Positions 2,401 through 53,438 of a DNA stretch of 64,000 bases are shown in pieces (positions within the stretch are counted from its first letter, which is position 1; every line of letters begins with the position of its first letter). Below the pieces are notes generated by a model. The model saw only the letters and a list, made by a program, of their open reading frames with translations, did not search any database and had not been told where the DNA came from. Source of the DNA: Candidatus Eremiobacteria bacterium (lineage in GTDB: Bacteria; Vulcanimicrobiota; Vulcanimicrobiia; Vulcanimicrobiales; Vulcanimicrobiaceae); contig CAVTRC010000001.1 of assembly GCA_963737065.1 (NCBI GenBank), positions 2,304,001-2,368,000 of the forward strand, given 5' to 3'. Both the position numbers and the translations under genes were made by a program.

Positions 2401-3582
2401 TTACCGGTGCGCGATTCCGTCGGTAAATCGCTCTAGGTCCGCGAGAATCATCGCACGATGCTCGTCGAAAAGCGGCAGCTCGTGCAGCACGCCGCGCGCG
2501 TCCCACGTGCGCTCGATCATCGCTCGGACGTCTCTGCGCACGATCGACATCGGAAGACTTGCCCGGCGCGCGAAGCGGCGTAGCCTATCGTCATCGTAGA
2601 TCGCGCGATCTTTCGATTCACCAAACGATAAGGCAAGGTTATGATCGACGTTCGGATACGGAAGCGTGCTGACGTAGTCGTACGCCGGCGAAACCTGCGG
2701 TGTTCGCGCATCGCGATAGATCAGCGATGAGTTTTTTAAATGCATGTCGCCGTTGCCGATCATGGCATTGAACGTAATCCGGCGGATGAGTTCGCGCGCG
2801 TCGGTGAAGGCACCGCGCTCGTTCGTTAGTCGCACCATATCCGCGTACGTGTAATTTTTATATTTCTCATGCGGAAATTGCCCGAAGGCTTGATTGAAGT
2901 CTTCGGTGTGGACGCGCAGCGTGTCCGAAGCTCGATCGAAGCGTCGAATCGCAAACGCCATGCCTCGCACGTTGAAATCGGCGGGGATGCCGGTAATCTC
3001 GTCAATAGGCACAAGACGTATTTCCGGCACGTCGATTCCGGCAGCTTGCGCGAATCGCAGCATCGAGTATTCGTTCTCCGTGAGGCCCGGATAGTTGCCG
3101 GAGGACAGCTTTACGATCCAGTCGCCGCCGAGACCGTGCACGGGAATCGTCAATGCGTCTGTTTCCGTAAGCAGTGCACTGAGCTTCAATTGGACGCCGG
3201 GAAGGGAGAAGGTCAGCGCATCGCTAGGCGGCGGTGCAACTGGTTGCGATGGCGATAAGACAACCGCTCCGATCAAGTCTGCACCGAGATACGTCAGCAG
3301 CGGAAAGTCCCGCTCCGGCGAGACGTCCAGATGCTTGGCGATGAGGGTGCGAAGGCCACCTTCCGGGAGTAGGTTCGCGAAGAACGGAGGTGCGAGGCGG
3401 TGTGTCCGTCCTGTCGACTCGAGGACGGAGCCGTCATGAGACACGAACGATTGGCTAAGAACGGGACGGTCGTGGTCCGCAACGTACTCCGGCGTAAACG
3501 CGAATACGGTGGAGTCGTCCGGAAGGTTCGTCAGGTGTCCGACGAGCGTGTCGCGTAACGAGACAGCGAGGGTCTGAATCAC
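2401..3582 (-). CDS. hipA: HipA-family toxin kinase with N-terminal couple_hipA domain
   Basis: PPFFANLLPEG, SLPGVQLK, WIVKL, RRFDR, GNGDMHLKN, SPAYD motifs; GTG start overlaps the antitoxin stop (GTGA). Confidence 0.92.
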   Translation of the reverse strand: MIQTLAVSLRDTLVGHLTNLPDDSTVFAFTPEYVADHDRPVLSQSFVSHDGSVLESTGRTHRLAPPFFANLLPEGGLRTLIAKHLDVSPERDFPLLTYLGADLIGAVVLSPSQPVAPPPSDALTFSLPGVQLKLSALLTETDALTIPVHGLGGDWIVKLSSGNYPGLTENEYSMLRFAQAAGIDVPEIRLVPIDEITGIPADFNVRGMAFAIRRFDRASDTLRVHTEDFNQAFGQFPHEKYKNYTYADMVRLTNERGAFTDARELIRRITFNAMIGNGDMHLKNSSLIYRDARTPQVSPAYDYVSTLPYPNVDHNLALSFGESKDRAIYDDDRLRRFARRASLPMSIVRRDVRAMIERTWDARGVLHELPLFDEHRAMILADLERFTDGIAHR

Positions 3583-3827
3583 ACCGGCATACTTGCAATG
3601 ACCCCTTCGACGAGCCGCGTCGCTCGTTTCGGCACAAGCATCGGCGTCAAGTCCAGCGCCGCGGCCAGTTGGTGAAGGCGCGAGACACGCAGATCGGCGC
3701 CGCGTTCTACTTCGGAAAGCCACGCCTGGGTGACGCCTGCCCGCTCGGCGAGCTGCTTTTGCGTTAACCCAGCCCGTAGACGCGCTGCGCGGATCGCCTC
3801 CCCGCTATACGGAATGGCATATACCAC
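3579..3827 (-). CDS. hipB: XRE-family HTH antitoxin (HipB-like)
   Basis: AIRAARLRAGLTQKQLAERAGVTQAWLSEVERG HTH; coupled upstream of hipA. Confidence 0.85.
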   Translation of the reverse strand: MVYAIPYSGEAIRAARLRAGLTQKQLAERAGVTQAWLSEVERGADLRVSRLHQLAAALDLTPMLVPKRATRLVEGVIASMPV

Positions 3828-15021: not shown

Positions 15022-15092
15022 CGAAAAACAAATAAACCGTCCGCCTCGCCGGCGGCCGGTTCGAATGGGCGCAAGGAACAAGTCCGACGCTA

Positions 15093-15252
15093 CCTCATTC
15101 GCATCCGAGCTTTGGCACCACGCGCCGTACCCCAAGAGGGAGCCGCGTTAGACACCGCCTTGTATCGGCGTAGTCTGGTCTACCCACTTGGCGTCTCTCG
15201 ACGTTTCGGGGCAGCGGCTTGTGTATCGCGTGGACGCCTCACCTAGCGAGGT
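15093..15252 (-). ncRNA. M-box (ykoK) Mg2+ riboswitch
   Basis: Minus strand carries CTCGCTAGGTGAGGC, GCTGCCCCGAAACGTCGAGAGACGCCAA, GGGT and GTGCCAAAGCTC hallmark blocks; upstream of Mg transport genes. Confidence 0.92.
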
Positions 15253-15330
15253 ATCCGTTCTAAGTATACGGCACATGTCGAGGCCCCGCATAATCGCGAG
15301 GCCTCGTTGCTTTTTGCATGCGACGCGGAG

Positions 15331-18619: not shown

Positions 18620-21600
18620 ATGACGTTTAAGTACGTCATGAGGCGCTTCTCGAGCGAACGCGCGTTCGGCCGCGTTATCCAACTCTTCGGGCTCGCGCTG
18701 ATGGTCGTTTCGGCGACGGCGTTTTTTGCCACGCGCAATGTGCGCGCGGAAACGATCGAAACTGTCCTTCGGCAATCGGCGCAAGCGATGCACGCCGCAC
18801 TCGACGTGGCCGCGGCCCCTTCACCGTCGCCTTCGCCTACGCCAGAATCCGCTGCGATGGAAGACATCGGCGAACATTCCGGACTGATCGCCACGCCTGG
18901 TCCAAGCACGCCGCCGGTCATCTCGCACGGTGGGCGTCTTGAATACACTATTAATGGAAGCCTCAGCCTCGGGAACCGGTCGTCGGGAAGCACGCGGCTC
19001 GATGGGACGGGCGAAACGCTCGTTTCCAACGTGGCGGAAACCGACGGCTCCGTCGGGATGAATCTCGAGCTGCGCCGCCGCACCGCGATGACGACCACGG
19101 ATCTTCAGATTCCGCTCGGGATCTCGACGCAAGGCGCGCAGTACGGGTACGGCAATCTTTCGTATTCGACGCCAAAGTATACGCTGGGTTATGCCTCCAT
19201 TCCGATCGCGTTGCTCGGTCAACTGACGCTCGGTGCAACGCAGCGCGGTCCGTACATGACGGTGCCGTACGGAACGGGCGACATCTCGATGTTCGAGGGG
19301 TTCACGACCGGCGTCGATCAGGAAGGCCTACATTTATATGGTATGCGAGCCCGCCGGCTCTATGGACGGACGCTCATGGAGCTCGGCTACGTCTATAATC
19401 CGCAAGCGCCGCAAACGGGATCGGCCGGCACGGCATTTGTCGGGGTCGCGTATGCAAAGAACGCGTTGTCGGCGATTCTCGAAACAGCGGAACAACATCG
19501 CGAAACTCCGACCGGCGATCTTTCGCTGTTTTCGTCGCAGCTTCGCCTAGACGATGGACTGCAGCAGGGAACGTACTCGCTGACGCTTCGGGACATTCCG
19601 GAGCGGCTGCTGTCCTACAATGCCGGCGAACTCTCCGGCGACAAGCTCGCCGATTTTTCGTATCGTTCGAATGGCCGCGGTGCATTGGGGCTCGACTTCG
19701 CGCTCGAGAAGAGCAGCTATCTCGGCCAAGTTTCGTCGCAGGAGCGCTCGCTGCTCAACTATGATTTCACGACGGGCGCGATCGGCTACAGCGTCGGGTT
19801 ACAGAATCAGCGCATCGCGGGCAGTCCGACCGAGTGGTCGGGGCTCGGCTCGCTGCAGCTGTCGTTTCCGATTCGAAACGGTTACGGCGTCGCGAGCGCA
19901 CAGTTTGGTCGAACGACGGAAGACGGAACCGGTCCGGTTGGGACAGCGCTCTATAACGTTGCTCTCTCCCGGCAGTTCGGCTCGTACGTCGTCGGCGGCT
20001 CGTTGACGCGGCAAAACCAATCGAGTACGACGACGGGCTTTTCACGTCAGAGCACGGCCGCCGTATCGTTTCAACGCACGTTTGGCAAAACGTCGATCGG
20101 CTACCAATATCAACTTTCGCGAACGCAGTCGCCCGTCAGCGATGCGTTGCAGAGCTTTCCCGCGTTCATCGTGCAGCGGCAGATTTCGCCCGTCATCTCG
20201 GTTCAAGCGCAGTACAGCATCCAACACCTAAGCGACCCGATCAATCCGGGATCGAACGGAACGTCGCGAAACTTCAGCATTCAGTTGAATGCACCGTTTG
20301 CCGTCGGAAATACGAACGTCGAAGGACGAACGGATCCGCGCTTGCCCGCGATGATCGAAGGGCGCATCACGGCGGATCTAGGCAACAACAACGCGCTCGC
20401 GGGCCTTTTAACCGGCGGACTGGGCAATATCGTCGTCGTTCTCGACAACACGCAAATTCAACGCACCGACTTGCAAGGCAATTTTCAGTTTTCGTACGTG
20501 CGTCCCGGCTCGCATCAATTACGCGTCGAGACGGCGTCGCTTCCGCGCGGCTATACCGTCGATCAACCGATCGTTACGCTGAACCTCGACGGCGGACAGA
20601 CCGCGCAAGTATATCTTCGCGTCGGCGATTTCGGCGGTATCGTCGGTCACGTGTTCGGCACCGATGCGAACGGCCAACGCATTCCGCTCGCCGGAGTAAA
20701 GCTGCGGATCGACGGCGGCCAGTACGCGCAGACGGATCAGCAAGGCATCTACGGCTTTGGGCGCCTTCTCTCCGGCAGCCACACGATCGAGATCATCGAG
20801 AACACCGTACCGGCCTTTGCGTCGTTCGACGAAAAATCCGTGAAACGGGACGTTAGCGTTCAGCGCGGTTCAACGGCAACGCTCGACTTCGTCGGCGAAC
20901 AGCTGGGATCGATTACCGGCAAAGTCGTCTATGATGCGACGCTCGCGCCCAATTACACGGGTCCGGTCATGAATGCATACGTCGTTGCAGAACCGGGAGA
21001 GCACGCAGCGATTACCAACGACGACGGCACGTTTTTGATCGACGACCTTCCCCCGGGTGACTACACCGTGTCGGTTGATCCGGAAACGGTTCCGGAGGAA
21101 ACGGGACAGCTCGGCGATCCTCTTTCCGTTGTGTTAAAGGGCAACGATAATTATCGCGGCGCGCTCTTCCTCGTCGGCCACGCCGTAAAGAAGGTCGTCT
21201 TCAGCCTTCTCTCTGGCGGTGCGGTGCCGGCAAGTCTCCACGTAAGTGAAGGCCGGTTGCCGCCGGGTGGTGCGACTGATGTTAGCGTTACTGCTCCCGC
21301 GGACGCTCACACCGTCACCGTATCGGGGCTCGGCGACGACGTCGACTTGAGCTTTGATGCAAAACGAAAGGAATGGACCGGCACGGTTCTCGTTCCATCG
21401 AAGGCGGCCGCCGGCACCGTCACGTTGACCGCTTCGGTCAGGCAGACGTCGGGCTCGATTGCGACCGCGACGGCAAAGGTCGTAATCGATCCGAAGTTGC
21501 CGATCGCGATCGTTCAATTGATTCCAGCGAATGCGGCGATCGGATCGTTCGCCGCCGCGCGTGCACGATTTCTGGTTGACGCGCGTCCCGGCGACAAGAT

Positions 21601-21742
21601 CGACTGGGAGGACGGACAGGAAACGGTTCTGGGCAAGCCCGTCGTCGGGCGCATCTTTACGTTCAGCCTGCGTCTTTCTTTACGCCCTCTGCATGGAGTG
21701 CTCCTAACCAAGACTGCTCGCTTGCCGATAAGCATTATGTAA
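18620..21742 (+). CDS. Usher-like outer-membrane protein: beta-strand-rich core plus three carboxypeptidase-regulatory/Cna-B-like Ig domains
   Basis: Signal-like segment; long amphipathic strand region; repeats TDLQGNFQF..PGSH, TDQQGIYGF..SGSH, TNDDGTFLI..PGDY. Confidence 0.65.
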   Translation: MTFKYVMRRFSSERAFGRVIQLFGLALMVVSATAFFATRNVRAETIETVLRQSAQAMHAALDVAAAPSPSPSPTPESAAMEDIGEHSGLIATPGPSTPPVISHGGRLEYTINGSLSLGNRSSGSTRLDGTGETLVSNVAETDGSVGMNLELRRRTAMTTTDLQIPLGISTQGAQYGYGNLSYSTPKYTLGYASIPIALLGQLTLGATQRGPYMTVPYGTGDISMFEGFTTGVDQEGLHLYGMRARRLYGRTLMELGYVYNPQAPQTGSAGTAFVGVAYAKNALSAILETAEQHRETPTGDLSLFSSQLRLDDGLQQGTYSLTLRDIPERLLSYNAGELSGDKLADFSYRSNGRGALGLDFALEKSSYLGQVSSQERSLLNYDFTTGAIGYSVGLQNQRIAGSPTEWSGLGSLQLSFPIRNGYGVASAQFGRTTEDGTGPVGTALYNVALSRQFGSYVVGGSLTRQNQSSTTTGFSRQSTAAVSFQRTFGKTSIGYQYQLSRTQSPVSDALQSFPAFIVQRQISPVISVQAQYSIQHLSDPINPGSNGTSRNFSIQLNAPFAVGNTNVEGRTDPRLPAMIEGRITADLGNNNALAGLLTGGLGNIVVVLDNTQIQRTDLQGNFQFSYVRPGSHQLRVETASLPRGYTVDQPIVTLNLDGGQTAQVYLRVGDFGGIVGHVFGTDANGQRIPLAGVKLRIDGGQYAQTDQQGIYGFGRLLSGSHTIEIIENTVPAFASFDEKSVKRDVSVQRGSTATLDFVGEQLGSITGKVVYDATLAPNYTGPVMNAYVVAEPGEHAAITNDDGTFLIDDLPPGDYTVSVDPETVPEETGQLGDPLSVVLKGNDNYRGALFLVGHAVKKVVFSLLSGGAVPASLHVSEGRLPPGGATDVSVTAPADAHTVTVSGLGDDVDLSFDAKRKEWTGTVLVPSKAAAGTVTLTASVRQTSGSIATATAKVVIDPKLPIAIVQLIPANAAIGSFAAARARFLVDARPGDKIDWEDGQETVLGKPVVGRIFTFSLRLSLRPLHGVLLTKTARLPISIM
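21705..21731 (+). promoter_or_regulatory. Sigma28-like internal promoter before the putative major fibre subunit
   Basis: TAAC-N15-GCCGATAA, 64 nt before ATG 21796. Confidence 0.55.
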
Positions 21743-24106: not shown

Positions 24107-24822
24107 AAAAGCTTCGCTACCTCTTTTTGATCTTCGCATTCCTAGCGGCCGCGCCGATCGTCGTTGAAGCCGCGCTGCAAAGTCAGCAGGCGCAGATCGC
24201 CGTTACGATCATCGTGAACGTGACTCCCAACCCACTCGGCTACACTGGAAAACCGGCGATCGCCGGCAACCAAATCGTGGCAACAGCGAAGCTGCGGGGA
24301 GCGCCTCCCGAGATCGAGCGCGTATTCGAAGCGCAGCAGCTCCATTTCGTTCCGAAAGGCGCTGAAATTGTCGCACAGGCGCAAGTTCAGCATGCGATAA
24401 AAGTTGAGGCCGAGGTCACTCCAAATCCGAATGCAACGCTTCTGACGTCCGATGCTTCCGGATATCAAGTGATCTTGAATGCGGAAGCCGGTACCCCGAC
24501 GTCGGTTCCGTGTGCGTATCATGTCCAGGTTAAGACGACGAAGACCGGATGGACGCTCAAGCATGGTCTTGCCGGAAACTTCAGCAATGGCGGAAGCGAC
24601 TCGTTCGTGGGCTCTAGCCTGGCGAATAACTCCCACGTCGGACCAACGCCGTTACCGACTGCAACGCCGTTCGTTGTTTATTCTACCGACGGCGGCGTGT
24701 GGGCAGTGCTTCAAACGAACAGCGGTACGCAAACGTATTGCGTCGATCTGACGCTCAACATGCCGATCACAACTGCTCAAGGAACGTATAGTTCGAATGC
24801 GATCTATACGTTGTACTACTAA
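24103..24822 (+). CDS. Putative minor pilin-like subunit
   Basis: GTG start overlapping upstream stop; signal peptide; ends GTYSSNAIYTLYY. Confidence 0.6.
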   Translation: MKKLRYLFLIFAFLAAAPIVVEAALQSQQAQIAVTIIVNVTPNPLGYTGKPAIAGNQIVATAKLRGAPPEIERVFEAQQLHFVPKGAEIVAQAQVQHAIKVEAEVTPNPNATLLTSDASGYQVILNAEAGTPTSVPCAYHVQVKTTKTGWTLKHGLAGNFSNGGSDSFVGSSLANNSHVGPTPLPTATPFVVYSTDGGVWAVLQTNSGTQTYCVDLTLNMPITTAQGTYSSNAIYTLYY

Positions 24823-27800
24823 TGTTTGCACGGAAGCTGCGCGGCGTTGTTGCGGGTGTATCGATCTTTCTTGCCGCGATATCGATCGGTCTTGCGCAAG
24901 TGCGGCCGCCGAGTCCGGTAGTTCACGGCGGGCAGCGGACCGTTCCGCGCCCGCTGATCACGGCATTGCCGCTTCCGGGTGCGACACCGGCTCCGGGCGC
25001 GACATCAACTCCCGCCTCGCATTTCGGTGCTCCGCTAAAAGGGTCGGGACGCGAGTATCCGGCTGGGACACGCGTCCCGCTTGCGGACCTTCCACGTCTG
25101 CCGATGAAAGCGTTGATTCCGACGATCAAAGCAAAATCGTATAGACAGCGGCATCCCTTCGCGCAGACCGGTGTAACGATCAACATCGTTTCGAGTACAT
25201 GCGCGAATCTCGTCGGCGATCTGTTCCCGACCGGCTGTAATCTGACGTTCAAAGCGGCAAGTTTGGCCGCCGGGAAGTACCAAGACTACGAGATCGCCCC
25301 GAACGCGACAACAGCGACGGCGGTCGGCGCTTCCTATACCAACACCGATTCGAATCGTACGATCGCTCTTACGAACGCCGGAGTCTACACGCTCGGCGTC
25401 TATGACGTAAACAATAACGATTGGGTCGCAGTCGTGTACGTCAACGCCGGAAACCCGGTGTTGCTGAAGGTCTATCAAGATCCGTACTTCTCGGAAGAGA
25501 CGTACCAATTCGATGCGTCGAGCAGCGGTGACGCGTACGTTCACATGACGAATCTTTCGGCGAACGATCTCTACGTCGTCGACATTGAATCGACATCGGT
25601 CCATCCGACGTGTGTTTTTTCCGCGCCGGCGCAAACGTCGATGCCGGCAAACACCCTGTGCAACCCGGGTAATTCGGCGGGAGAAACTGCACCCGGCGGC
25701 GTGCTCTCCGTTGCATGGCCGATCACATCCGCGCTCGGCGCGGGAACGTATTCGATCACGCTGTACGATAAATCCGTATCGCCGGCTCCCGGTCAGCGAA
25801 TCGCGCAAGTGCAGGTTTCGCTGACTGGTTCGAACGGCATCACGATGACGCTCAACGGTAACACGAACGGTTCGAACACGACGGTCAATCCGTCGCCGGC
25901 ACCCGCGGTGGTGCCGCAAGCGGCAACGGTATTCGCGTGGGACGATTCAAGCGAACAGTCCGTGTCCGGCGTTACGCTGGGTGTCGGAAGTTTGAGCGGC
26001 GACAAATATATTTGGTCGATCAACGATCCGACCGGTTATACGGCCGGTAAAGTCGGTCCGGTTACCTTGAATGGCATTGCGAGTCAAGGATTCACGTTCG
26101 GGACGATGGGCATCTACGGCCCGGGCGACTATCCCTCGCGAATCTTCACGGCGGGAATCTACGATTCGACCAGTCAGTCGATGTACGCCTCGCAGTCGTT
26201 CAAGGTCGTCGGCTACAACGCTGAAACCGCGTTCCATACGACGTCGGACGCATCGTCGCTGAGCGTCGCGCAGGGTTCGAACGCGACCGCAACGTTGAAG
26301 TTCACGAATTCCAGCGACCTCAACTACGGCGTTGGAAATGGCGACTCACTGGCCGGCATCGCGTACACGACCGGCCCCGACTTTACACCGCAGTCGGGTG
26401 GGTCCGGCACGGGTGTCGGTGTCATGATGGCGCTGGCCGGGAAGACGCTCGCGCAGTGTGTGATCCCCTCGGGATGCTCGACCACCGTAACGGATCCGAC
26501 GACCGGGTACGTGTGGAGCGTCAACGACTATTGCAGCGACAGCACCGTAACCACCACCGGCGAATGTTACCTGGTGATGTTGCCGCAGAGCAACGGCGTT
26601 TCATTACCGGTCGGTGACACGCTCACGATCCCGAACGTCACGTTTTATAATGCGACCGGCAGCGGTTGCAGCACGCAGTGCCAAGGATCGACGTCGATCT
26701 TGCCCTCGCACGGTGTCAAATGGTCGCGCATCGACACGCAGGAAGCGTTCTTTCCGACGTACTTCCAAAACGGCGCAACCACCTTAACCGGCACCGCGCA
26801 TCTGGCACTCGTGGGCTATCAAAACATCGGCGGCAGCAACAACCGCTTCACGTCGCCCGGCGTGCCGGAAGCGCATCTTTATCAGACACGCACGGTTCAC
26901 GCGACCTATGGATATCACAGTCCTTACGGGCTGACCAGCCAGGACTACATCATCTACGGTCTGACGGTCAATAACGGTGCATCATCTCAAACGATCAAGA
27001 CGGTTGCCGTGGCGCAACCCGGTCCGTTCTCAGGCGCCAACACGTTGAACAACGTCGCCGTCGACTCCAGCTCCAGCGGCAATAACGGCTGGGGTCTCGT
27101 CATCGGCGGACAGGCGCCATGTCAGAACCTCACGGCGGAATACTTCTGCGTCTACGCCAAGGGGACGAACCCTGGCGTCAAGGCGGGCAATTCGGCGACG
27201 ATCTACATCGATCAGAACGTCGCGCCGTTCAATTACGGTTACACCGACTGGGTCGTCTCGTCTGTGAATCCGAACTTCTCGATTACGGCAGACGGTACGA
27301 CGACGGTTCCGGTGAACAGTCCGTCGTTGTCGATCGATACGCTCGCGTTCGCGCAATACGCGCTCGACAGCTCGTCGATGTCGGCTTCGTTCGCACCGGG
27401 CACGGCCGGTCAAGGTGCGACGTCTACCGAAAATATCGTCGTCAGCAATGCATCGACGTCGAGCGATCCCAACCCCGACTACGTCGACGCCATTCTGATC
27501 GGTGTGCCGAACGGCGCGCCCCTCGTGAACGGAAATCCGACCACGTCGAGCACCGGCTGGTCGTACCTCGGGTCGTATAACGCCGGCAGCACGATCTACT
27601 ACTGGTTCGGCGTTTGTCCCAGTCAGTACACGAACGCGAACACGTATCTGCCGCCCGCGGCCACACCGAACACGTCGGTTCAAAACGCGCTGCCTCAATG
27701 TACGGCCGCACAGGAGAACAACTCGCTCGCGCCCGGCGGGACGTTCACCGGCACAATGGTGCTCAGCAACTTAAATAGCCCAAGCGTTAGCGTGCAGATG

Positions 27801-28889
27801 TGGGCGCACGGCGCCAACGGCGACGGCTGGTCGGCGCCGAAGACGATGACGTTGCCGGTATCGACCGTTACCGCGAGCGCCGGCTTCTCGAATGCCGGTA
27901 AATATGGCTCGCCGCCCGCGGTTGCGTCGAACACGGTGCCCACGATTGGCGGCAACAGCGACCCGTTGAACGGCAACTCGTACGTCTACACCGTGAAAAA
28001 CACCACGCAGGCGACGAACATTACGTCCTTCCGCGTACGCATCCCGGGTGTCGACGTCAGCGGAAACAACGCCTACGACGGCTCGAATGCCTGGCACGTG
28101 ACCAATGCAATTCCCACGCTCGGCGGAAACGTCGACGGCTGTACGATCACGAACGCGATTGCTGCGATGGCAGCTACGGCCGCTGGAGCAGACGGTGAAA
28201 TCGACGTCGGAGGAGCGAGCTGCAAATTGAAAGCGGGCGATACGATCACGTTGAGCTTCAGCGCGATCGGGCCCGAAGCGCAATCGGATTCCTATCCGTT
28301 CGATACCTACTGCTTGAACAATACGGCGGGTACGTGCACGGTGACGAACGGTTCGAATGCCGGCGAAAATTGGCTGGGCGACACGCGGGTTCAGGTGCAG
28401 TTGACGATCGGCTTGAACGTCGTGGTGGATCCCAGTAATCCGGGCCCAGGCAGCTCGACACCGGTCATCAGTTGTCCCGGATGTTCGTTCTCCGGTACGA
28501 CGGTCGACGTCGGAACGATTGGATCGAACTCGACGGGCGCGTTTACCGACATCGTTCGCGCGTCGATTTATATCCAGTCGAACACCACGGTGAACTACAC
28601 CCTCTCGGTGTCGGCGAATCAGAATCCGGCGAACAGCACCGGAACGCCGACGAACGAGTTGTTGACCGCGGTCGATCCGTCGAACTCAACGAGCGGTGCC
28701 GGCATCAACTTCGATCAAACCTCGTACGCCGTTGTTCCGACCGCGACTACGATGCAGGTGGCTCACGGTGCGAGCATCACGACGAGGAGCTTGCCGTACG
28801 ACGTTCTGCAAGACTTCCAAGTGTCGATCGGCAACGAATCGATTATGCCGCAGGCGTCGGTCGTTACGTATACGTTGATCGCGAACTAA
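24822..28889 (+). CDS. Large (1355 aa) beta-rich tip adhesin with C-terminal pilin-like domain
   Basis: Signal peptide; Ser/Thr/Asn/Gly-rich with many Cys; C-terminal TVDVGTI...VVTYTLIAN parallels the major subunit; TAATG overlap. Confidence 0.65.
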   Translation: MFARKLRGVVAGVSIFLAAISIGLAQVRPPSPVVHGGQRTVPRPLITALPLPGATPAPGATSTPASHFGAPLKGSGREYPAGTRVPLADLPRLPMKALIPTIKAKSYRQRHPFAQTGVTINIVSSTCANLVGDLFPTGCNLTFKAASLAAGKYQDYEIAPNATTATAVGASYTNTDSNRTIALTNAGVYTLGVYDVNNNDWVAVVYVNAGNPVLLKVYQDPYFSEETYQFDASSSGDAYVHMTNLSANDLYVVDIESTSVHPTCVFSAPAQTSMPANTLCNPGNSAGETAPGGVLSVAWPITSALGAGTYSITLYDKSVSPAPGQRIAQVQVSLTGSNGITMTLNGNTNGSNTTVNPSPAPAVVPQAATVFAWDDSSEQSVSGVTLGVGSLSGDKYIWSINDPTGYTAGKVGPVTLNGIASQGFTFGTMGIYGPGDYPSRIFTAGIYDSTSQSMYASQSFKVVGYNAETAFHTTSDASSLSVAQGSNATATLKFTNSSDLNYGVGNGDSLAGIAYTTGPDFTPQSGGSGTGVGVMMALAGKTLAQCVIPSGCSTTVTDPTTGYVWSVNDYCSDSTVTTTGECYLVMLPQSNGVSLPVGDTLTIPNVTFYNATGSGCSTQCQGSTSILPSHGVKWSRIDTQEAFFPTYFQNGATTLTGTAHLALVGYQNIGGSNNRFTSPGVPEAHLYQTRTVHATYGYHSPYGLTSQDYIIYGLTVNNGASSQTIKTVAVAQPGPFSGANTLNNVAVDSSSSGNNGWGLVIGGQAPCQNLTAEYFCVYAKGTNPGVKAGNSATIYIDQNVAPFNYGYTDWVVSSVNPNFSITADGTTTVPVNSPSLSIDTLAFAQYALDSSSMSASFAPGTAGQGATSTENIVVSNASTSSDPNPDYVDAILIGVPNGAPLVNGNPTTSSTGWSYLGSYNAGSTIYYWFGVCPSQYTNANTYLPPAATPNTSVQNALPQCTAAQENNSLAPGGTFTGTMVLSNLNSPSVSVQMWAHGANGDGWSAPKTMTLPVSTVTASAGFSNAGKYGSPPAVASNTVPTIGGNSDPLNGNSYVYTVKNTTQATNITSFRVRIPGVDVSGNNAYDGSNAWHVTNAIPTLGGNVDGCTITNAIAAMAATAAGADGEIDVGGASCKLKAGDTITLSFSAIGPEAQSDSYPFDTYCLNNTAGTCTVTNGSNAGENWLGDTRVQVQLTIGLNVVVDPSNPGPGSSTPVISCPGCSFSGTTVDVGTIGSNSTGAFTDIVRASIYIQSNTTVNYTLSVSANQNPANSTGTPTNELLTAVDPSNSTSGAGINFDQTSYAVVPTATTMQVAHGASITTRSLPYDVLQDFQVSIGNESIMPQASVVTYTLIAN

Positions 28890-30179: not shown

Positions 30180-31521
30180 GTTCGCGTTCACTCCAGCCGC
30201 CGTCGCGAATCTTCAGCGCGGTTAGCGCGGCGCGCGCGCTCCATGCCATGATCCACGCGACCGGCACGCTGAAGAGCGCGAGATGAAGCCGCTCGATTCC
30301 GAGCCATGTCAACGGTAGAACGAACAGTCCGCATACGATTCCGACCGCCATCGAGAATCTCGTGTCGCCCGCCGCGCGGATTGGTGCGATGCCCACCATC
30401 GCCCACCCTTTGATCGGCATCGTAAGCATGTGCACGGCGAGCGGCAGCGCCGCAACGCTCGCGACGGCTGCATTCATCGTAAACAGAAATGACAGCGGCC
30501 AGGCGCAGACAGCGACGACCGCGCCGGTGAGCGTCGTGACGAGCAGCGTCGTGCGCAGCGCACGGTGCAGAAACATCGTCGCGCCTTCGGCGTCGCGGGC
30601 GCCCAGGCGCTGGCCGATGACCGTCTGCGTAGCGCTTTGCAATGGACCGGGAACGACGAACGTAAGGTCGGATACGACGTTGAGCGCGCGAAACGCGGCG
30701 ATGTAGATTGCGCCGAGCGGGGCGAGCATTGCGACGACCGCCATGTCGGGGCCGACGACCGCGAATCCGAAGACGCTTTCCGGAACGCCGAGCCACGCGC
30801 AACGCAACGCCAAGCGCCAGTCGATGGTAAACTGCGAGAACACCCGGTAGATTGGCTTGCGCGCAACGTAGATCACTGCAACGACCGCGGCGATCGTTTC
30901 CGAAATCAGCGTCGACACACCGGCGCCGACGATGCCATACGGGTGGCCCGTCAGCCACCCGAGCGCGAGCACAAGCACGAGCGGGATGTGAATGATGTTG
31001 ATGATCCCGAGCAAATACGCGCCGAGCTTTCGGTTTCCGGCCGCGCCAAGCCCGACGATCAACGTTGACGAGACATTGAACGGTATCAGTGATGCGCAAC
31101 GAACGATCAAATAGCCGGCGCTCGCATGGACCGAAGCGATGTGCGGCAGCATCAGCGTCAGTAGCGGGCGCGCACCGAAGAACGCAACGATCGTCACCGC
31201 AATAGAAGCGATCATCGGCACAGCGAATCCCGAACGTACCGTGCGTCCGAACCCATCGACGTCATGCGCACCGATGCGCTGAGCGGCGATGATACCGACA
31301 CCGCTCCACAAACCGCCGATCGTCATGATGATCGTGAACGTGACCGTAGTCGCAGCGGTGACGCCGGCGAGCGCAATGGTGCCTAGGTAGCCGATGGCGA
31401 TCGTGTCGACAACGCCGAGAACTTGGTCGCCGAGCATCTGTACGGCAAGCGGAACAGAAAGGCGCCGGAATGCGGCGCCTACTTTCGTGTGATCGACGAC
31501 CATGGAAGAAGCGGGCGTCAT
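30166..31521 (-). CDS. MATE-family efflux transporter
   Basis: VDTIAIGYLG, AAQRIGA, VIGQRLGA, RAAGDTR; about 12 hydrophobic segments. Confidence 0.9.
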   Translation of the reverse strand: MTPASSMVVDHTKVGAAFRRLSVPLAVQMLGDQVLGVVDTIAIGYLGTIALAGVTAATTVTFTIIMTIGGLWSGVGIIAAQRIGAHDVDGFGRTVRSGFAVPMIASIAVTIVAFFGARPLLTLMLPHIASVHASAGYLIVRCASLIPFNVSSTLIVGLGAAGNRKLGAYLLGIINIIHIPLVLVLALGWLTGHPYGIVGAGVSTLISETIAAVVAVIYVARKPIYRVFSQFTIDWRLALRCAWLGVPESVFGFAVVGPDMAVVAMLAPLGAIYIAAFRALNVVSDLTFVVPGPLQSATQTVIGQRLGARDAEGATMFLHRALRTTLLVTTLTGAVVAVCAWPLSFLFTMNAAVASVAALPLAVHMLTMPIKGWAMVGIAPIRAAGDTRFSMAVGIVCGLFVLPLTWLGIERLHLALFSVPVAWIMAWSARAALTALKIRDGGWSEREPIAA

Positions 31522-32663
31522 CGCAATCGGTCGAGCACCGCAAAAAAGCGGTCGATCTCCTCATCGGTGGTGTAGAAGTGGGGGCTGACGCGAATTCCGC
31601 AGCCCGGGCGATAGTCCACAAAAACCCGGTCCGCAATCAGTTGGTGGCAAACTCGCTCGGAATCTTCAAAATCGATTCCAATCCAGCCGGTTCGTTTCGC
31701 CGGATCGAGCGGTGAATTTACCGTGAGGTGACGCTCGAGTGCCATGTCGGCGAGCTTCGTCGTTAAACGCACGTTGTGTTCGCGAATATGTGCAACGCCG
31801 ATGCTGCGAATGAGGTCGTGGCCCGGCTTCGCTACGAGATACCCGGGAATCGTCGGCGTGCCGGTTCCGAAGCGATACATTGAAGATGCATATCGAATCG
31901 GCGCGTCTTCGAACGCAAACGGTGCGGCATGCGCCATCCAGCCGGTGACGGCTGGACGGAATCGTTCGAGCAGCGGCGGCTTCACATAAATCCAACCGCA
32001 CCCGGGCCCGCCGAGTAACCACTTGTGCGAACCGCCCGTGACGATATCCAAATCCCAGTCCGTCACGTCGTACGGATACGTTCCGGTCGTTTGATATGCA
32101 TCGACGCACAACAGCGCGCCGACCTTGCGGCAATGCGCCTGGATCGCTTGCACCTCGGCAAGCGCGCCGGACACGTAGTATGCGTGCGAAAGGACCGCGA
32201 TTTGCGTGCGCTCGGTTATCGCCTCAACGATCCGTTCCGTCGGGATCGTGCGTCCATCGTTCGAGCCCACGATGCGAACCGTCGCGCCGTACCGTTCCCA
32301 CTCGGTCCAGACATACGTCAGCGACGGGAATTGCAGCGCTTCGTACACGACTTCGTTGCGCTCGCCGCGAAAATCGAGCGACGTTGCGAGCGCCGCTTGC
32401 AACACCGAAACGTTCGGGCCGAGAAACACCGATCCGGGCGCGGCACCGATGATCGACCCGATGCCATCGCCGACGACCGCGATTTCCGGCAACCAGCGCT
32501 CCCATGCCTGGGGACCGTCTGTCGCCCACTCGTTCCAGTACGATTCGAGCGCGGCTTTCGCGCGCAGCGGCGCCGCGCCCATTGAATGATTCACCAGATA
32601 GGTGGCTGTTTCGAGGATCGGAAATTGATCGCGATGCAGCGCTTGCGTGGCCGTCGTCGTCAT
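31518..32663 (-). CDS. kynU: Kynureninase-like class V PLP enzyme
   Basis: YLVNHSMG, FPS, VDAYQ, GGSHKWLLGGPG, GWMAH, RVSPHFY; coupled to kynA. Confidence 0.72.
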   Translation of the reverse strand: MTTTATQALHRDQFPILETATYLVNHSMGAAPLRAKAALESYWNEWATDGPQAWERWLPEIAVVGDGIGSIIGAAPGSVFLGPNVSVLQAALATSLDFRGERNEVVYEALQFPSLTYVWTEWERYGATVRIVGSNDGRTIPTERIVEAITERTQIAVLSHAYYVSGALAEVQAIQAHCRKVGALLCVDAYQTTGTYPYDVTDWDLDIVTGGSHKWLLGGPGCGWIYVKPPLLERFRPAVTGWMAHAAPFAFEDAPIRYASSMYRFGTGTPTIPGYLVAKPGHDLIRSIGVAHIREHNVRLTTKLADMALERHLTVNSPLDPAKRTGWIGIDFEDSERVCHQLIADRVFVDYRPGCGIRVSPHFYTTDEEIDRFFAVLDRLR

Positions 32664-33442
32664 GACTGCGCGTAATTACCGGTGCCTAAGTGCGTCCGCA
32701 CCTCCCACAGTTCGGGGAAGAACCGGTGTCCGAGCGTGCGCTGTAGATACTCGGCGCCGGACGAACCCCCGGTGCCGATTCTATTTCCGATCATGCGCTC
32801 CACCATGCGGACATGCCGTCCGCGCCAAAGCAAGAAGCGCTCGTCGAACTCGATCAGATCCTCGAGGAGCAGATACAGATCGTAGTACTTGTCGGTGTCG
32901 ACGTAGATGCGGCGGAACGATTCGACCAATTCCTCGCTGGAATCGACCGCGAAACCACGCCGCTTCAGCAGTGCTTTGACGTGATCGTATAAGGACGGTT
33001 CCTGTGCCGCCCGTTCGAGCCGCGTCCGTTGTTCCTTGTCCATCGAAATATACTTCAGCGCCTCCGTGCGCCGCACACCGCATAGGAATTCCACTTCGCG
33101 AAACTGCACGGACTGAAAACCGCTCGCGGGGTTGAGATTGTCGCGAAACTCGTTAAACTCTTGCGGCGTCATGGTTTCCAAGACGTCGACTTGCTGTTCG
33201 AGCAGACGCTGAATCGTGTGAATGCGGCGGAAATACTTCGCGACGCGCAATAATTCATCACGATCGAGCGCGTCGACGACCGCGCGCAGTTCATGCAGCA
33301 CTTGCTTGAACCACAGCTCGTACACTTGATGAATCACGATAAAGAGGATTTCATCGTGATGTTCCGGGCTCGAGAGCGGACGTTGAAGGCCGACGAGTTC
33401 GTCGACCTTCAGATAAGAACTGTACGAGAGGCGGTCGTCCAT
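32660..33442 (-). CDS. kynA: Tryptophan 2,3-dioxygenase
   Basis: HDEILFIVIHQVYELWFKQ, SGFQSVQFREVE, VERMIG..GTGGSSG. Confidence 0.95.
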   Translation of the reverse strand: MDDRLSYSSYLKVDELVGLQRPLSSPEHHDEILFIVIHQVYELWFKQVLHELRAVVDALDRDELLRVAKYFRRIHTIQRLLEQQVDVLETMTPQEFNEFRDNLNPASGFQSVQFREVEFLCGVRRTEALKYISMDKEQRTRLERAAQEPSLYDHVKALLKRRGFAVDSSEELVESFRRIYVDTDKYYDLYLLLEDLIEFDERFLLWRGRHVRMVERMIGNRIGTGGSSGAEYLQRTLGHRFFPELWEVRTHLGTGNYAQS

Positions 33443-50679: not shown

Positions 50680-51438
50680 TCACCGCGGTTCGCGAGGTTT
50701 CGAGAGACCCAACCAAAACGTTTCAACGCCCGCGAGCATCACTGCGCCCGCGCGGATGAAACGTGCCGGCGAGAATCGCGGCTTTGCAAACGCGGCCGCG
50801 AGTTCGTCATCGGTGTGCGCAGCGTGCTGGTCCTCGAGCGCGTCGTGCCATGTCCAGAATCCCAGCGGGAGATCGGGCCGGCGCGTCGCTTTGATCGTGC
50901 GAAGGCCAAGAATCAACTGTTTCCAAAATCCGGCCGCCGCCCAATGTTCGATCGCGTACGACGCGCCGGCAGCAGTTGATTCATCGTGCGAGCCATACCA
51001 TTCCAGAAGCGTGTCGCAGAACGCGAGCGTCTCGGCCGAACCGTGTTCGCGTTTGCCGATCTCCTTCCACGTCAACCCGATCGATTCGGCGAATTGCACG
51101 AGCCATTCGAAGTGTCCGGCTTGAAACCTGAACGTGCCGCCTTCCACCGATCCGGTCGGCGAGAAGCCGACGCCGAGCTCATTCAGCAAAATCTCTTTGC
51201 CCGCGTGGTAACTCTCGAGGTCCGGTGCGTTGATGCACTTGCGCAATTGCGCCTCGATGAAGAGATGACTGAAGACTGAGAATTGCACCGTGAAGTGGCG
51301 CAGTTCGTCGTCGCTCGCGGCGCCCGTCGCAAACCACTCCGTGTACGGATTATGCTGTACGATCGGATGCGCTCCGATTTCCTCGTCGACGGCGCATCGA
51401 AACGCGTCGACTGCTGATGTGGGCGCTGCTGCGATCAT
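50680..51438 (-). CDS. Heme-oxygenase-like diiron (HDO; TenA/PqqC/CADD fold) enzyme of unknown function
   Basis: HP N-terminus; ligand pattern NE...H(FEW)...E(HW)...HxxxExxH; AGGAG RBS. Confidence 0.8.
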   Translation of the reverse strand: MIAAAPTSAVDAFRCAVDEEIGAHPIVQHNPYTEWFATGAASDDELRHFTVQFSVFSHLFIEAQLRKCINAPDLESYHAGKEILLNELGVGFSPTGSVEGGTFRFQAGHFEWLVQFAESIGLTWKEIGKREHGSAETLAFCDTLLEWYGSHDESTAAGASYAIEHWAAAGFWKQLILGLRTIKATRRPDLPLGFWTWHDALEDQHAAHTDDELAAAFAKPRFSPARFIRAGAVMLAGVETFWLGLSKPREPR

Positions 51439-51469
51439 GATCGATCTCCTGGTACAAAACAAGAGCAAT

Positions 51470-51500
51470 AAAAAAGCCGCCTCGCTGTCGGCGAGGCGGC
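51470..51500 (-). terminator. Intrinsic terminator (attenuator) upstream of the HDO gene
   Basis: GCCGCCTCGC-CGACA-GCGAGGCGGC-TTTTTT on the minus strand. Confidence 0.88.
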
Positions 51501-51524
51501 GTGTGTTCTAGCGGACGGTATTCG

Positions 51525-51602
51525 CTAAGACAACGGCAACCTGCAGCCGACTTCATCGAAGCGGCTGTAATAATACGAAACGGTTGCGGGCTGTCTGGAC
51601 AT
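51525..51602 (-). CDS. Tyr-rich attenuator leader peptide MSRQPATVSYYYSRFDEVGCRLPLS
   Basis: ATG..TAG of 25 codons with TAT TAT TAC, between promoter and terminator; below the ORF-track cutoff. Confidence 0.78.
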   Translation of the reverse strand: MSRQPATVSYYYSRFDEVGCRLPLS

Positions 51603-51614
51603 GGTTTAGCGAGG

Positions 51615-51643
51615 AGTCTAACATGAAGGACGCGGCAATGCAA
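51615..51643 (-). promoter_or_regulatory. Sigma70 promoter of the leader/HDO unit
   Basis: TTGCAT-N17-TAGACT with extended TG, 12 nt before the leader ATG. Confidence 0.7.
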
Positions 51644-51836
51644 TACATCGTCCGTCCTTGCGACGGCATGTTGCGGCTTCGCGTTCGCAGGTGCCACGTT
51701 TGCCGCGAACGGCCCGGCGGCGGGTCATGACCCAACCGATGTGTCGCGACGCTCAGGCGCAGGGAAAGCGCGATTCGCGTCGCAGCAGTCGCCGCACTGC
51801 CCGCACGCGGCATCGTGCTGCGTGGCCCGTTTTACA

Positions 51837-52190
51837 ATGAGTTTTTTCTTGAAGTGGCTGAAGGCGGAAACGACCGCGCACATCGGATTGCGTCCGCATC
51901 GCCTCGTTGAGCTGCCCGTTGACTTCGACACCGCGTACGGTCGCGTTCTCCACGCGATTGAAGTAACGCTCGGCGCGAACGTCTACATCGACGATCGCAA
52001 CGGCCGCTTTATCGAAGCGGGCTTCGGACTGGTGAACAACGAGCGCGTGCGCGTGAGCTTCGAAACCGAATCGGCGTTCGCAACTTGCGTGCGCGTCGAA
52101 GCGTACTTCCCCGCGGGCGCCAAAATTCCGAAGAAGTCCGCGGCGGTCGACGTATTAGCCGATACGCTCGAAGCCGGTATAACGGCGTAA
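51837..52190 (+). CDS. Hypothetical protein
   Basis: Globular-looking ORF from MSFFLKWLK filling the gap before serS. Confidence 0.6.
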   Translation: MSFFLKWLKAETTAHIGLRPHRLVELPVDFDTAYGRVLHAIEVTLGANVYIDDRNGRFIEAGFGLVNNERVRVSFETESAFATCVRVEAYFPAGAKIPKKSAAVDVLADTLEAGITA

Positions 52191-53438
52191 AACGTCCGGT
52201 ACTTCGATCGAGCCGTCGGCTTGTTGGTAATTTTCCATAATTGCAAGGAGCGTGCGGCCGACCGCGAGCCCCGAACCGTTCAGCGTATGCACGAGTTCGG
52301 GTTTCGACCTTGGATCGCGCCGAAAGCGGATCGATGCACGGCGCGCCTGGAAATCGGTGCAGTTCGAGCACGAACTGATTTCACGGTAGCCTTTCGAACT
52401 CGGCAACCACACTTCGAGGTCGTAGGTCTTCGCGGAATTGAAGCTGACGTCGCCCGCGCACAACGCCATGACGCGATGCGGAAGCCGAAGCTCCTCGAGG
52501 AGCGTGCGTGCGTCCTCGGTTAAGCGCTGGAGCGCCTCCAACGATTGCTCCGGTTGGGAAAGCCAAACGAGTTCTACTTTTTCGAACTGATGTTGACGAA
52601 TCAGTCCGCGGGTGTCTTTGCCGGCCGCACCCGCTTCTTTGCGGAAGCAAGGCGTATACGCCGTCATTTTCCGCGGCAGCGACTGAATATCCAGAATTTC
52701 GTCGCCATGCAACGCGGTCAGCGGAACTTCGGCCGTTGGAATCATGAACAGGTCCGCATCGCGGTCGATGAACATCGCATCGGAAAATTTCGAAAGCTGC
52801 CCGGTGCTCCACATCGTACCGCGCGAAACGAGCAGTGGAGGAATGACTTCGAGGTAACCGCGTTCGTTGGCGCGGTCCAAAAAATACTCCACGAGCGCGC
52901 GCGAGAGGCGCGCACCTTTCCCTTTCAAGATCGCAAAACGGCTGCCGGATAGCTTTGCGGCGCGTTCGAAGTCGAGAATGTCGAGCTCTTCGCCGAGTTC
53001 CCAATGCGGCTTCGGCGTGAACGGGAATTCGCGCGGCGTTCCCCACGAACGCACGCAGACGTTGTCTGCTTCGCCCGCTCCGTCGGGGACCGAGTCATCC
53101 AGAACGTTCGCCGTATTTTCTAGAAGCGATCGCAGCGTCGAGTCGGGATTATCGGGCGCGAGCGCCTTTGCACGTTCTTCATCGCGCGCGATCCGCTGCG
53201 AAAGCTCATCGAGCTTCGGCTTGAGATCCCGTGCCGCGGCGGCTTTATCCGGCGCTTTACCGATCTCGGCCGACAAGCGATTCTTCTCGGCTTTTGCCGT
53301 TTCGACGTTCGCAAGGGCGGAGCGGTACTCTGCGTCCAAGCGCAGAACGTCATCGACGAACGACGCATCATTCCCGCGACGCTGTGCCGACCGCCGAACG
53401 CGATCGGGATCGCGTCGTAGTAAAGCGATATCGAGCAT
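52155..53438 (-). CDS. serS: Serine--tRNA ligase
   Basis: MLDI start, PTAEVP, FRKEAG, RGLIRQHQFEKVE, YREISSCSNC, HTLNGSGLAVGR. Confidence 0.98.
   Translation of the reverse strand: MLDIALLRRDPDRVRRSAQRRGNDASFVDDVLRLDAEYRSALANVETAKAEKNRLSAEIGKAPDKAAAARDLKPKLDELSQRIARDEERAKALAPDNPDSTLRSLLENTANVLDDSVPDGAGEADNVCVRSWGTPREFPFTPKPHWELGEELDILDFERAAKLSGSRFAILKGKGARLSRALVEYFLDRANERGYLEVIPPLLVSRGTMWSTGQLSKFSDAMFIDRDADLFMIPTAEVPLTALHGDEILDIQSLPRKMTAYTPCFRKEAGAAGKDTRGLIRQHQFEKVELVWLSQPEQSLEALQRLTEDARTLLEELRLPHRVMALCAGDVSFNSAKTYDLEVWLPSSKGYREISSCSNCTDFQARRASIRFRRDPRSKPELVHTLNGSGLAVGRTLLAIMENYQQADGSIEVPDVLRRYTGFERIG

Follow-up and report, generated by a model that had tools for sequence, protein, structure and literature searches.

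What controls the gene at 50680-51438 on the minus strand of a 64,000-nucleotide stretch of a Candidatus Eremiobacteria bacterium (assembly GCA_963737065.1, contig CAVTRC010000001.1, positions 2,304,001 to 2,368,000; hereafter the window, numbered from its first nucleotide), and what does that control say about its product, a predicted heme-oxygenase-like dimetal enzyme (HDO)? Directly ahead of the gene lies a short leader open reading frame (ORF) with adjacent tyrosine (Tyr) codons, followed by a hairpin and an intrinsic terminator. The anatomy of this leader, which is conserved in two phyla, the in-frame run of Tyr codons and a set of mutually exclusive RNA helices together point to a ribosome-mediated leader-peptide transcription attenuator, and we consider it likely that this attenuator reads the supply of tyrosyl-tRNA and gates the HDO gene. 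Leader-peptide attenuation is textbook biology; what is new here is tyrosine as the amino acid that would be sensed, by which the class known from trp, his and phe would gain a member. The elements of the leader, their conservation, their covariation and the complementarity of their strands are established directly.

A sequence-only reading of the window had placed, in order on the minus strand, a promoter (TTGCAT-N17-TAGACT), a leader ORF with three Tyr codons, a hairpin opening at the last of them, a 10-bp GC terminator ending in six U residues, and the AGGAG ribosome-binding site and start codon of the HDO gene. When the sequence was re-read, all of these coordinates proved correct (Table 1), and a TG was added to the promoter as part of an extended -10 box. 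The leader from 51610 to 51465 folds at -57.1 kcal/mol (z = -5.2 against 200 shuffles). The pattern TAYTAYTAY occurs once in the 64 kb, with 0.33 occurrences expected, and is found at least once in 29 of 100 shuffles; the Tyr run is therefore without significance when the window is taken alone. The arrangement owes its significance to being kept upstream of the homologous gene in all 75 related loci that can be assessed.

These loci come from a large clade, with 3282 database proteins at E values up to 0.001 and 441 matches in species-representative genomes; when the latter were scanned, the best 80 of the 441 stretches encoding HDO relatives were analysed. An alignment of 74 distinct leaders (A2) was used to build a covariance model, R1, which was searched against 561,637 bases made up of the window and the 80 loci, and a model-fitted alignment (A3) was examined; the leaders of the window and of 75 related loci make 76. 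R1 gives a single match in the window (51465-51629, 105 bits) and one match in each of 75 of the 80 loci, always directly upstream of the HDO homologue. The five loci without a match have no readable upstream sequence (none at all in L022, L038 and L043, and a group II intron in L068 and L072), so that the element is present in 75 of 75 assessable loci. It was seen only before the HDO gene, once per locus and nowhere else in the window; one weak match on the opposite strand of the terminator in L025 (E = 0.005) is regarded as spurious. The terminator stands just ahead of the HDO gene in nearly all loci, with stem sequences that differ by clade, and the small ORF with its Tyr run lies about 100 nt further upstream. 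The loci that bear the element belong to the Eremiobacterota and to the Melainabacteria, non-photosynthetic Cyanobacteriota, with 10 of the 75 from Melainabacteria/Obscuribacterales, and the element is thus kept with its gene across both groups. The closest homologues assign the window itself to the Eremiobacterota, for which Vulcanimicrobiota is another name. To our knowledge, hardly any members of either group have been cultured, and next to nothing is known of how their genes are regulated. Rfam holds no family for this leader, as judged by the window at the gathering score and by six related loci, and a search of 51300-52300 at E values up to 10 returned nothing but chance terminator matches.

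A quick maximum-likelihood tree built from 81 HDO proteins unites the 12 sequences from Melainabacteria (L055, L057, L058, L061, L063-L068, L072 and L075) in one group with a support of 99 in the Shimodaira-Hasegawa-like approximate likelihood ratio test (SH-aLRT). With midpoint rooting, this group is nested among the Eremiobacterota, beside the group of L027, L050, L059, L062 and L071, which suggests one transfer of the HDO gene with its leader between the phyla, in either direction. Two contigs carry labels from other taxa: the HDO gene and leader of L065, labelled Flavobacterium psychrophilum, are nearly identical to those of Obscuribacterales, and those of L033, labelled Candidatus Acidiferrales, to those of Candidatus Cybelea; both contigs are probably mis-binned or mislabelled. 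The group II introns (RF01998, RF00029) of two Melainabacteria loci lie directly upstream of the HDO gene (L068:115-1685 and L072:33-105) and end about 30 nt before its start codon, at about the place that in the other loci is taken by the sequence immediately past the U tract. Since the contigs break off within the intron or at its edge, the leader is not visible in either.

The leader ORF bears the signature of a coding sequence in which one residue matters. An ORF of 19-28 codons is found in all 76 leaders, encoding 60 distinct peptides and starting with ATG in 75 and GTG in one. Loss of the Tyr codons upstream of homologues, one of the outcomes that would have counted against the sequence-only reading, is not seen: adjacent Tyr codons occur in 69 of the 76 leaders, and the other seven, from one clade, have three separate Tyr codons and no adjacent pair. 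Where the codons are adjacent they are in frame with the start in every case (69/69), although the run begins at 21, 24, 27 or 30 nt from it, four spacings that are all multiples of three. The longest uninterrupted run has two codons in four leaders, three in 18, four in 31, five in 11 and six in five, whilst runs of at least three of any other residue are limited to Leu (4 of the 60 peptides) and Ala (3 of 60). Between the two phyla, the leader peptides have only the Tyr run in common (e.g. MTAKNAYSYYYYTYSLGVG in Melainabacteria), and the distance from the run to the stop codon varies from 18 to 48 nt. Past the run, codons for Arg, Tyr and Cys replace one another, and the opposite arm of the hairpin changes to compensate (pairs 87-101, 88-100 and 90-98); the peptides end in different frames and at different lengths while the RNA word UCGGCUAG is kept. 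These compensated codon swaps and shifting frames suggest that selection downstream of the Tyr run acts on the RNA and not on the peptide.

In the alignment of the regions upstream of the HDO homologues, both stems covary and the Tyr runs are conserved. RNAalifold recovers the hairpin after the Tyr run (1:2) and the terminator (3:4), and on A3, whose fitting to the model favours these two helices and made no use of the antiterminator, 96.7% of their cells are paired and 12 of the 17 pairs show double changes; none of 500 shuffles reaches the observed values, and pairings slid out of register attain at most 49%. Six of the seven pairs of hairpin 1:2 (92.5% of cells paired) and six of the ten pairs of the terminator (99.6%) are changed on both sides. 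The terminator loop CCGA is conserved, and the sequence between the helices differs between the clades.

The 1:2, 2:3 and 3:4 layout of classical attenuators had also been recognised in the sequence-only reading, which took the antiterminator to be a pairing of six bases, GTCGGC in the 3' arm of the hairpin with GCCGAC in the 5' arm and loop of the terminator. The two hexamers are indeed complementary and the alternative pairing is conserved, but six base pairs fall short of its real extent: in the window, the antiterminator comprises 13 pairs (51551-51536 with 51487-51500; duplex energy -19.2 kcal/mol) and covers the whole 5' arm of the terminator. When scored across A3 as ten pairs (columns 100-111 with 206-217), 85.7% of the cells are complementary compared to 20-51% when the strands are slid, and 21 cells carry double changes against 4.2 in shuffles, a value that none of 500 shuffles reaches. 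The clearest case is the clade of L069, in which the 2:3 pair 105-211 goes from C:G to U:A, and the same terminator base switches partner in 3:4, where the pair 211-228 becomes A:U in seven rows. The duplex of the segment-2 zone with the 5' arm and loop of the terminator has a median energy of -16.2 kcal/mol, and in 73 of 74 leaders it is stronger than the pairing of that zone with two control regions from within the leader. A further, long-range helix joins the 5' part of the leader ORF to the stretch at and beyond its end (Table 1), with a median across the leaders of 19 bp against 9.1 bp in shuffles and a value above the shuffle mean in 72 of 75. Since it overlaps the antiterminator strand, this helix would help to lock that strand when no ribosome is present. 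Full leaders folded without a ribosome have the terminator in the minimum free energy (MFE) structure in 75 of 75 cases and hairpin 1:2 in 71 of 75.

The promoter suggests where the transcript begins. In the window, the ATG of the leader follows the -10 box by 12 nt and no Shine-Dalgarno sequence is seen, and across the leaders the ATG stands 7-13 nt after the -10 box, mostly 9-10 nt in the Eremiobacterota. In the Eremiobacterota rows of A3, the -10 columns contain TG in 65 of 66 and TAnnnT in 63 of 66, and a TTG is present in the -35 window of at least 51 of the 74 leaders, a lower bound because some starts were mis-set. Words resembling a Shine-Dalgarno sequence were flagged before the leader ATG in six of 74 leaders, of which two are scanning errors and four overlap the -10 region. 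A general promoter scan of the window did not list TTGCAT-N17-TAGACT, because TAGACT matches the consensus at only three of six positions. The combination of a conserved -10 box, a start codon a few nucleotides after it and no Shine-Dalgarno sequence suggests that the leader ORF is probably leaderless or nearly so, and the conserved frame and the promoter-to-ATG spacing suggest that it is translated and coupled to transcription.

We simulated ribosome positions with an assumed footprint of 29 nt and equilibrium folds. With the A site on Tyr12 of the window leader, 13 pairs of helix 2:3 are predicted to form once the RNA reaches the terminator loop. Placing the A site on the last three Tyr codons opens hairpin 1:2 and lets 2:3 form in 75 of 75 leaders, whereas with the A site at least five codons past the run 2:3 forms in at most one of 75. 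Folding with and without the segment covered by the ribosome had been proposed along with the original reading. In the Eremiobacterota, the HDO start lies only 18-38 nt from the terminator stem, and therefore the HDO gene can be expressed only by read-through of the terminator.

We propose the following series of events. Transcription would begin a few nucleotides before the leader ATG, and a ribosome would load on the leaderless or near-leaderless start while RNA polymerase moves on. When tyrosine is sufficient, the ribosome would reach the stop codon and either cover segment 2 or let hairpin 1:2 and the long-range helix form again; the 10-bp terminator would then form and transcription would stop 37 nt before the HDO start. 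When charged tRNA-Tyr is scarce, the ribosome would stall on the Tyr run, covering the 5' arm of hairpin 1:2 and breaking the long-range helix, so that segment 2 (51551-51536) could pair with the emerging 5' arm and loop of the terminator (51500-51487). The terminator would thereby be blocked and the HDO gene transcribed. From the conserved elements we infer that translation of the leader is coupled to transcription, in which direction the gene responds and that the response is specific to tyrosine; that the gene is on when Tyr is short would follow from the architecture, and the low Tyr content of the HDO protein lends this direction a little weight. Tyr makes up 1.6% of the protein compared to 2.95% in 26 long ORFs of the window (median 1.5% in 30 homologues), whereas Phe (7.1% vs 3.8%), Trp (3.6% vs 1.0%) and His are abundant, and low Tyr with high Phe and Trp is as expected of a protein made in Tyr shortage.

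The identity of the HDO product bears on what such a switch would be for. By sequence, the product scores 25.4 bits against PF14518, which is below the cut-off, receives no NCBIfam name at 1e-5, and in PDB searches with a profile and with the single sequence retrieves no chain of CADD or another HDO, only weak unrelated matches (E at least 0.1); ESM Atlas returns generic PqqC/TenA/HDO clusters only. An AlphaFold2 model built with 30 homologues is all-helical, with a predicted local distance difference test (pLDDT) score of 86.6, and shows the predicted seven-helix heme-oxygenase-like bundle of the HDO superfamily. The best PDB match found by Foldseek is CT610/CADD of Chlamydia (template modelling scores 0.72/0.83, 16% identity), followed by BesC, PqqC, HrmI, UndA and SznF. 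TIGR04305, the CADD family, is the only family with a weak match; it matches 15 of the 30 homologues (best E 2.9e-5) and gives the window protein 18.5 bits against a cut-off of 200. The CADD-like fold and the sub-cut-off score point to a heme-oxygenase-like dimetal enzyme that is distantly related to CADD and lies outside the CADD family. The metal ligands of the superfamily, three His and three carboxylates on the core helices according to the available part of PMC13108848, may be compared with the His, Glu and Asp residues that are invariant in the homologue alignment, including H198-x3-E202-x2-H205, E164, E82 and H58/E62 (sequence positions). Tyr32, in an N-terminal H..Y..W motif, is nearly invariant among the homologues. 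In CADD and NePabS, the sacrificial residues are Tyr27/Lys152 and Tyr25/Lys159, respectively. CADD and NePabS cleave their own tyrosine to make para-aminobenzoate (pABA) in a single turnover, as described in the portions of PMC9522330 and PMC11965152 available to us, and the context of Tyr32 resembles the CADD peptide quoted in the first of these, a likeness noted by eye and without a residue-level alignment to CADD. The present protein and these enzymes share the seven-helix fold, and the present protein is rich in aromatic residues and has its nearly invariant Tyr in the N-terminal helix region; they differ in that identity is 16%, the family score is below cut-off and no folate genes are nearby. 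CADD-family genes are located among folate biosynthesis genes in the accessible text of PMC9522330, whereas no folate genes were found among the scanned ORFs of the window or the 72 ORFs neighbouring HDO genes in related loci. Nor do the neighbours include aromatic amino-acid genes; they are variable, and the 72 flanking ORFs show no conserved partner. Among the 36 same-strand ORFs that were scanned downstream, the only recurrent partner is an ornithine cyclodeaminase/mu-crystallin gene, which occurs four times (L030:1841-2755, L033:3768-4682, L038:718-1692 and L045:3765-4694) and starts either inside the HDO gene or right where it ends.

Several of our results weigh against an attenuator that reads tyrosine. 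The closest characterised enzymes consume tyrosine, so that induction by Tyr shortage has no evident physiological reason. Seven leaders are without adjacent Tyr codons and four have only two. The leaders are enriched in the rarer codon TAT (61% against 37% in HDO genes in the Eremiobacterota; 35% against 0% in the Melainabacteria), which speaks for the attenuator, but the comparison counts related sequences as independent. No conserved promoter was recognised in the Melainabacteria leaders. As for the antiterminator, only three of its ten pairs show double changes, and shuffles do as well (296 of 500); the other measures of 2:3 can be raised by relatedness alone, and its covariation appears modest; a shuffled segment 2 averages -12.1 kcal/mol, and just 35 of 74 leaders beat 95% of their shuffles. 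In the ribosome simulation, an A site four to seven codons before the last Tyr also gives pairing in the 2:3 zone (73-74 of 75), as do ribosome-free transcripts cut before the 3' arm in 39 of 75. The footprint model supports the geometry yet does not single out the Tyr codons. Finally, when the full leader is folded at equilibrium with the ribosome on Tyr12, the terminator wins (-39.0 vs -27.7 kcal/mol), and antitermination must therefore be kinetic.

Because the nearest relatives consume tyrosine, two other explanations stay alive. The first takes the Tyr-rich peptide to be a product and not only a sensor: it would be a sacrificial or precursor substrate of the CADD-like HDO, with the terminator setting the ratio of peptide to enzyme. 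PqqA, the precursor peptide for pyrroloquinoline quinone (PQQ), offers an analogy. The fold and the weak family matches to CADD (15 of 30 homologues) fit this explanation, as does the fact that the tyrosine cleaved in single turnover by CADD and NePabS is protein-bound (available parts of PMC9522330 and PMC11965152); peptide and HDO are linked in 76 of 76 cases despite variable gene neighbourhoods, and the number of Tyr in the peptide varies from two to seven. We nevertheless consider it unlikely. Nothing outside the Tyr run is conserved between the clades, and the C-terminal half shifts in frame and length although the RNA is conserved; the neighbouring ORFs include neither a peptidase or transporter nor any other maturation gene. 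Neither hallmark of ribosomally synthesised and post-translationally modified peptides of the PqqA kind, i.e. a peptide conserved beyond the modified residues and maturation genes alongside, is thus seen. A terminator that fixed a ratio would need neither the conserved loop nor the complementarity of 2:3, and the HDO protein has a nearly invariant tyrosine of its own, Tyr32.

In the second, the leader would act as TnaC does, as an arrest peptide that detects free tyrosine within the ribosome tunnel, and high tyrosine would cause the stall and switch the gene on. The architecture implies no more than read-through when a ribosome is arrested on or ahead of the Tyr run, and switching on at high tyrosine would suit a tyrosine-consuming enzyme, which is how the closest characterised enzymes act. 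This explanation is very unlikely, given that a run of identical codons variable in number (two to six), with no other conserved residues and a stop codon 18-48 nt away, is the mark of a charged-tRNA sensor; the HDO protein is moreover poor in Tyr and the leader enriched in the rarer Tyr codon. Were the conserved RNA instead a riboswitch, or a leader that binds a protein or small RNA (sRNA), the Tyr codons would be incidental to a U/A-rich spacer. The strong structure (z = -5.2) and the conserved CCGA terminator loop are compatible with such a leader, which is highly improbable in view of the missing Rfam match, the divergence of the inter-helix sequence between clades and UAY repeats that stay in frame with the start at four spacings (69/69), for which an RNA motif has no need. 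Lastly, a separate small gene or sRNA that has a terminator of its own and is unrelated to HDO expression, or a terminator that belongs to serS, is hardly credible: the off state would yield an RNA of about 135 nt that might have a role of its own, but serS (53438-52155, same strand) ends 655 nt upstream with the opposite-strand ORF 51837-52190 (+) in between, the gap of 18-38 nt between terminator and HDO gene in the Eremiobacterota leaves no room for a promoter, and the element occurs only in front of the HDO gene, once per locus.

The tyrosine-reading attenuator, which remains our preferred explanation, can be set beside known systems. The trpL, pheL, hisL, leuL and thrL attenuators likewise consist of a promoter, a short ORF with a codon run, the helices 1:2, 2:3 and 3:4, and the gene, and of the features that define the class four are found here: an ORF with a codon cluster, an intervening terminator, a mutually exclusive 2:3 helix (in silico) and a suitably placed 1:2 hairpin. 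The energies of hairpin 1:2 and the terminator (Table 1), with about -19 kcal/mol for 2:3, are similar to those of classical attenuators. In the trp attenuator, too, no element is more stable than the terminator, and control has to be kinetic. The present leader differs from the classical ones in that it would read tyrosine, has no Shine-Dalgarno sequence and a leaderless or near-leaderless start, possesses an extra long-range helix, and controls a single HDO gene and no known biosynthetic operon; it matches none of the Rfam leader families for Trp, His, Leu, Thr and Phe. The accessible part of PMC1262725 gives T-boxes as the control for tyrosine at the RNA level and lists attenuators for other amino acids; the aroR leader of C. 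glutamicum, despite its Phe-Tyr-Phe, does not respond to Tyr, according to the text available of PMC11802643. In our literature searches, neither an attenuator with tyrosine codons nor a link between an HDO and tyrosine biosynthesis came up, a search on amino-acid biosynthesis in the Eremiobacterota yielded nothing of use, and in the parts of PMC9522330 and PMC11965152 to which we had access no Tyr-codon leader is reported for CADD genes. The leaderless polycysteine short-ORF attenuators of mycobacteria, as far as the available text of 10.1101/834739 describes them, offer a precedent for the leaderless start and are alike in that a leaderless ORF with a run of one residue controls genes by that amino acid, and differ in that the residue is Cys and not Tyr and the phylum is another.

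If the leader reads tyrosine, it serves as a functional label on a large HDO clade whose closest characterised relative performs unusual tyrosine chemistry. It is possible, and we put it forward tentatively, that the attenuator marks this CADD-related clade as a tyrosine-supply enzyme, belonging to an O2-dependent non-canonical route that is switched on at low tyrosyl-tRNA. The reaction may be para-hydroxylation of Phe, or the enzyme may stand in for TyrA by decarboxylating prephenate or arogenate oxidatively. A bolder variant, in which the Tyr-run peptide is a sacrificial substrate that makes CADD-type chemistry catalytic, is less likely. The element turns the question of HDO function into specific assays and complementation tests, and may also provide a compact tyrosine-responsive switch as a tool.

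Table 1 Features of the HDO locus in the window (positions as in the window; alternative structures of the leader RNA are listed with their strands)
Feature	Position	Strand	Detail
-35-like hexamer TTGCAT	51643-51638	-	read from sequence
-10 hexamer TAGACT	51620-51615	-	17-nt spacer after TTGCAT
Extended -10 box TGtTAGACT	51615-51623	-	TG at 51623-51622
Leader ORF MSRQPATVSYYYSRFDEVGCRLPLS, 25 codons and stop	51602-51525	-	stop codon 51527-51525
Tyr codons TAT-TAT-TAC, proposed sensing site	51575-51567	-	
Hairpin 1:2	51567-51544	-	-12.9 kcal/mol; 5' arm opens at last base of last Tyr codon
Long-range helix, 5' strand (leader codons 3-7)	51596-51582	-	MFE structure
Long-range helix, 3' strand, overlapping the antiterminator strand	51541-51528	-	MFE structure
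Segment 2 zone (GUCGGC..AGGU..GC), upstream antiterminator strand	51551-51536	-	
Small hairpin opening at the leader stop codon	51527-51509	-	MFE structure
Intrinsic terminator, 10-bp G+C stem with 5-nt loop, then T6	51500-51476 (stem), 51475-51470 (T6)	-	-21.4 kcal/mol
Complementary hexamers GTCGGC / GCCGAC	51551-51546 / 51492-51487	-	
AGGAG ribosome-binding site of the HDO gene	51450-51446	-	7 nt ahead of ATG
HDO gene, 252 codons	50680-51438	-	ATG at 51438

The intervening opposite-strand ORF places the leader in a divergent intergenic region, so that no upstream gene ends at the terminator; for serS this was ruled out by the distance and by this ORF. Downstream of the HDO gene lies a convergent Crp-like regulator, and the HDO gene thus stands alone. 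The ORF divergent from the leader promoter (51837-52190) has 117 codons (MSFFLKWLK...), its 117-aa product has no Pfam or NCBIfam match, and at its 3' end it shares 36 nt with that of the convergent serS. An 86-codon ORF in another frame (51813-51553), which overlaps the promoter and the leader, was set aside without a homology search, because conservation begins at the -10 box and tracks the Tyr frame.

Elsewhere in the window, a full-length M-box magnesium riboswitch (RF00380, 125.6 bits) was found at 15087-15257 (-), followed downstream on the same strand by ORFs without a family and then by an NRAMP/MntH-like transporter (13623-12229). At 31518-33442 (-), a tryptophan 2,3-dioxygenase (TIGR03036, 273.9 bits) adjoins an aminotransferase class-V protein with a weak kynureninase match, and the two may be kynurenine pathway genes. 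Neither of the very long ORFs at 18620-21742 (+) and 24822-28889 (+), which encode 1040 and 1355 aa, is matched by NCBIfam at 1e-5. An ORF at 2401-3723 (-) encodes a HipA-like kinase with a match to the HipA N-terminal domain and is probably the toxin of a toxin-antitoxin pair.

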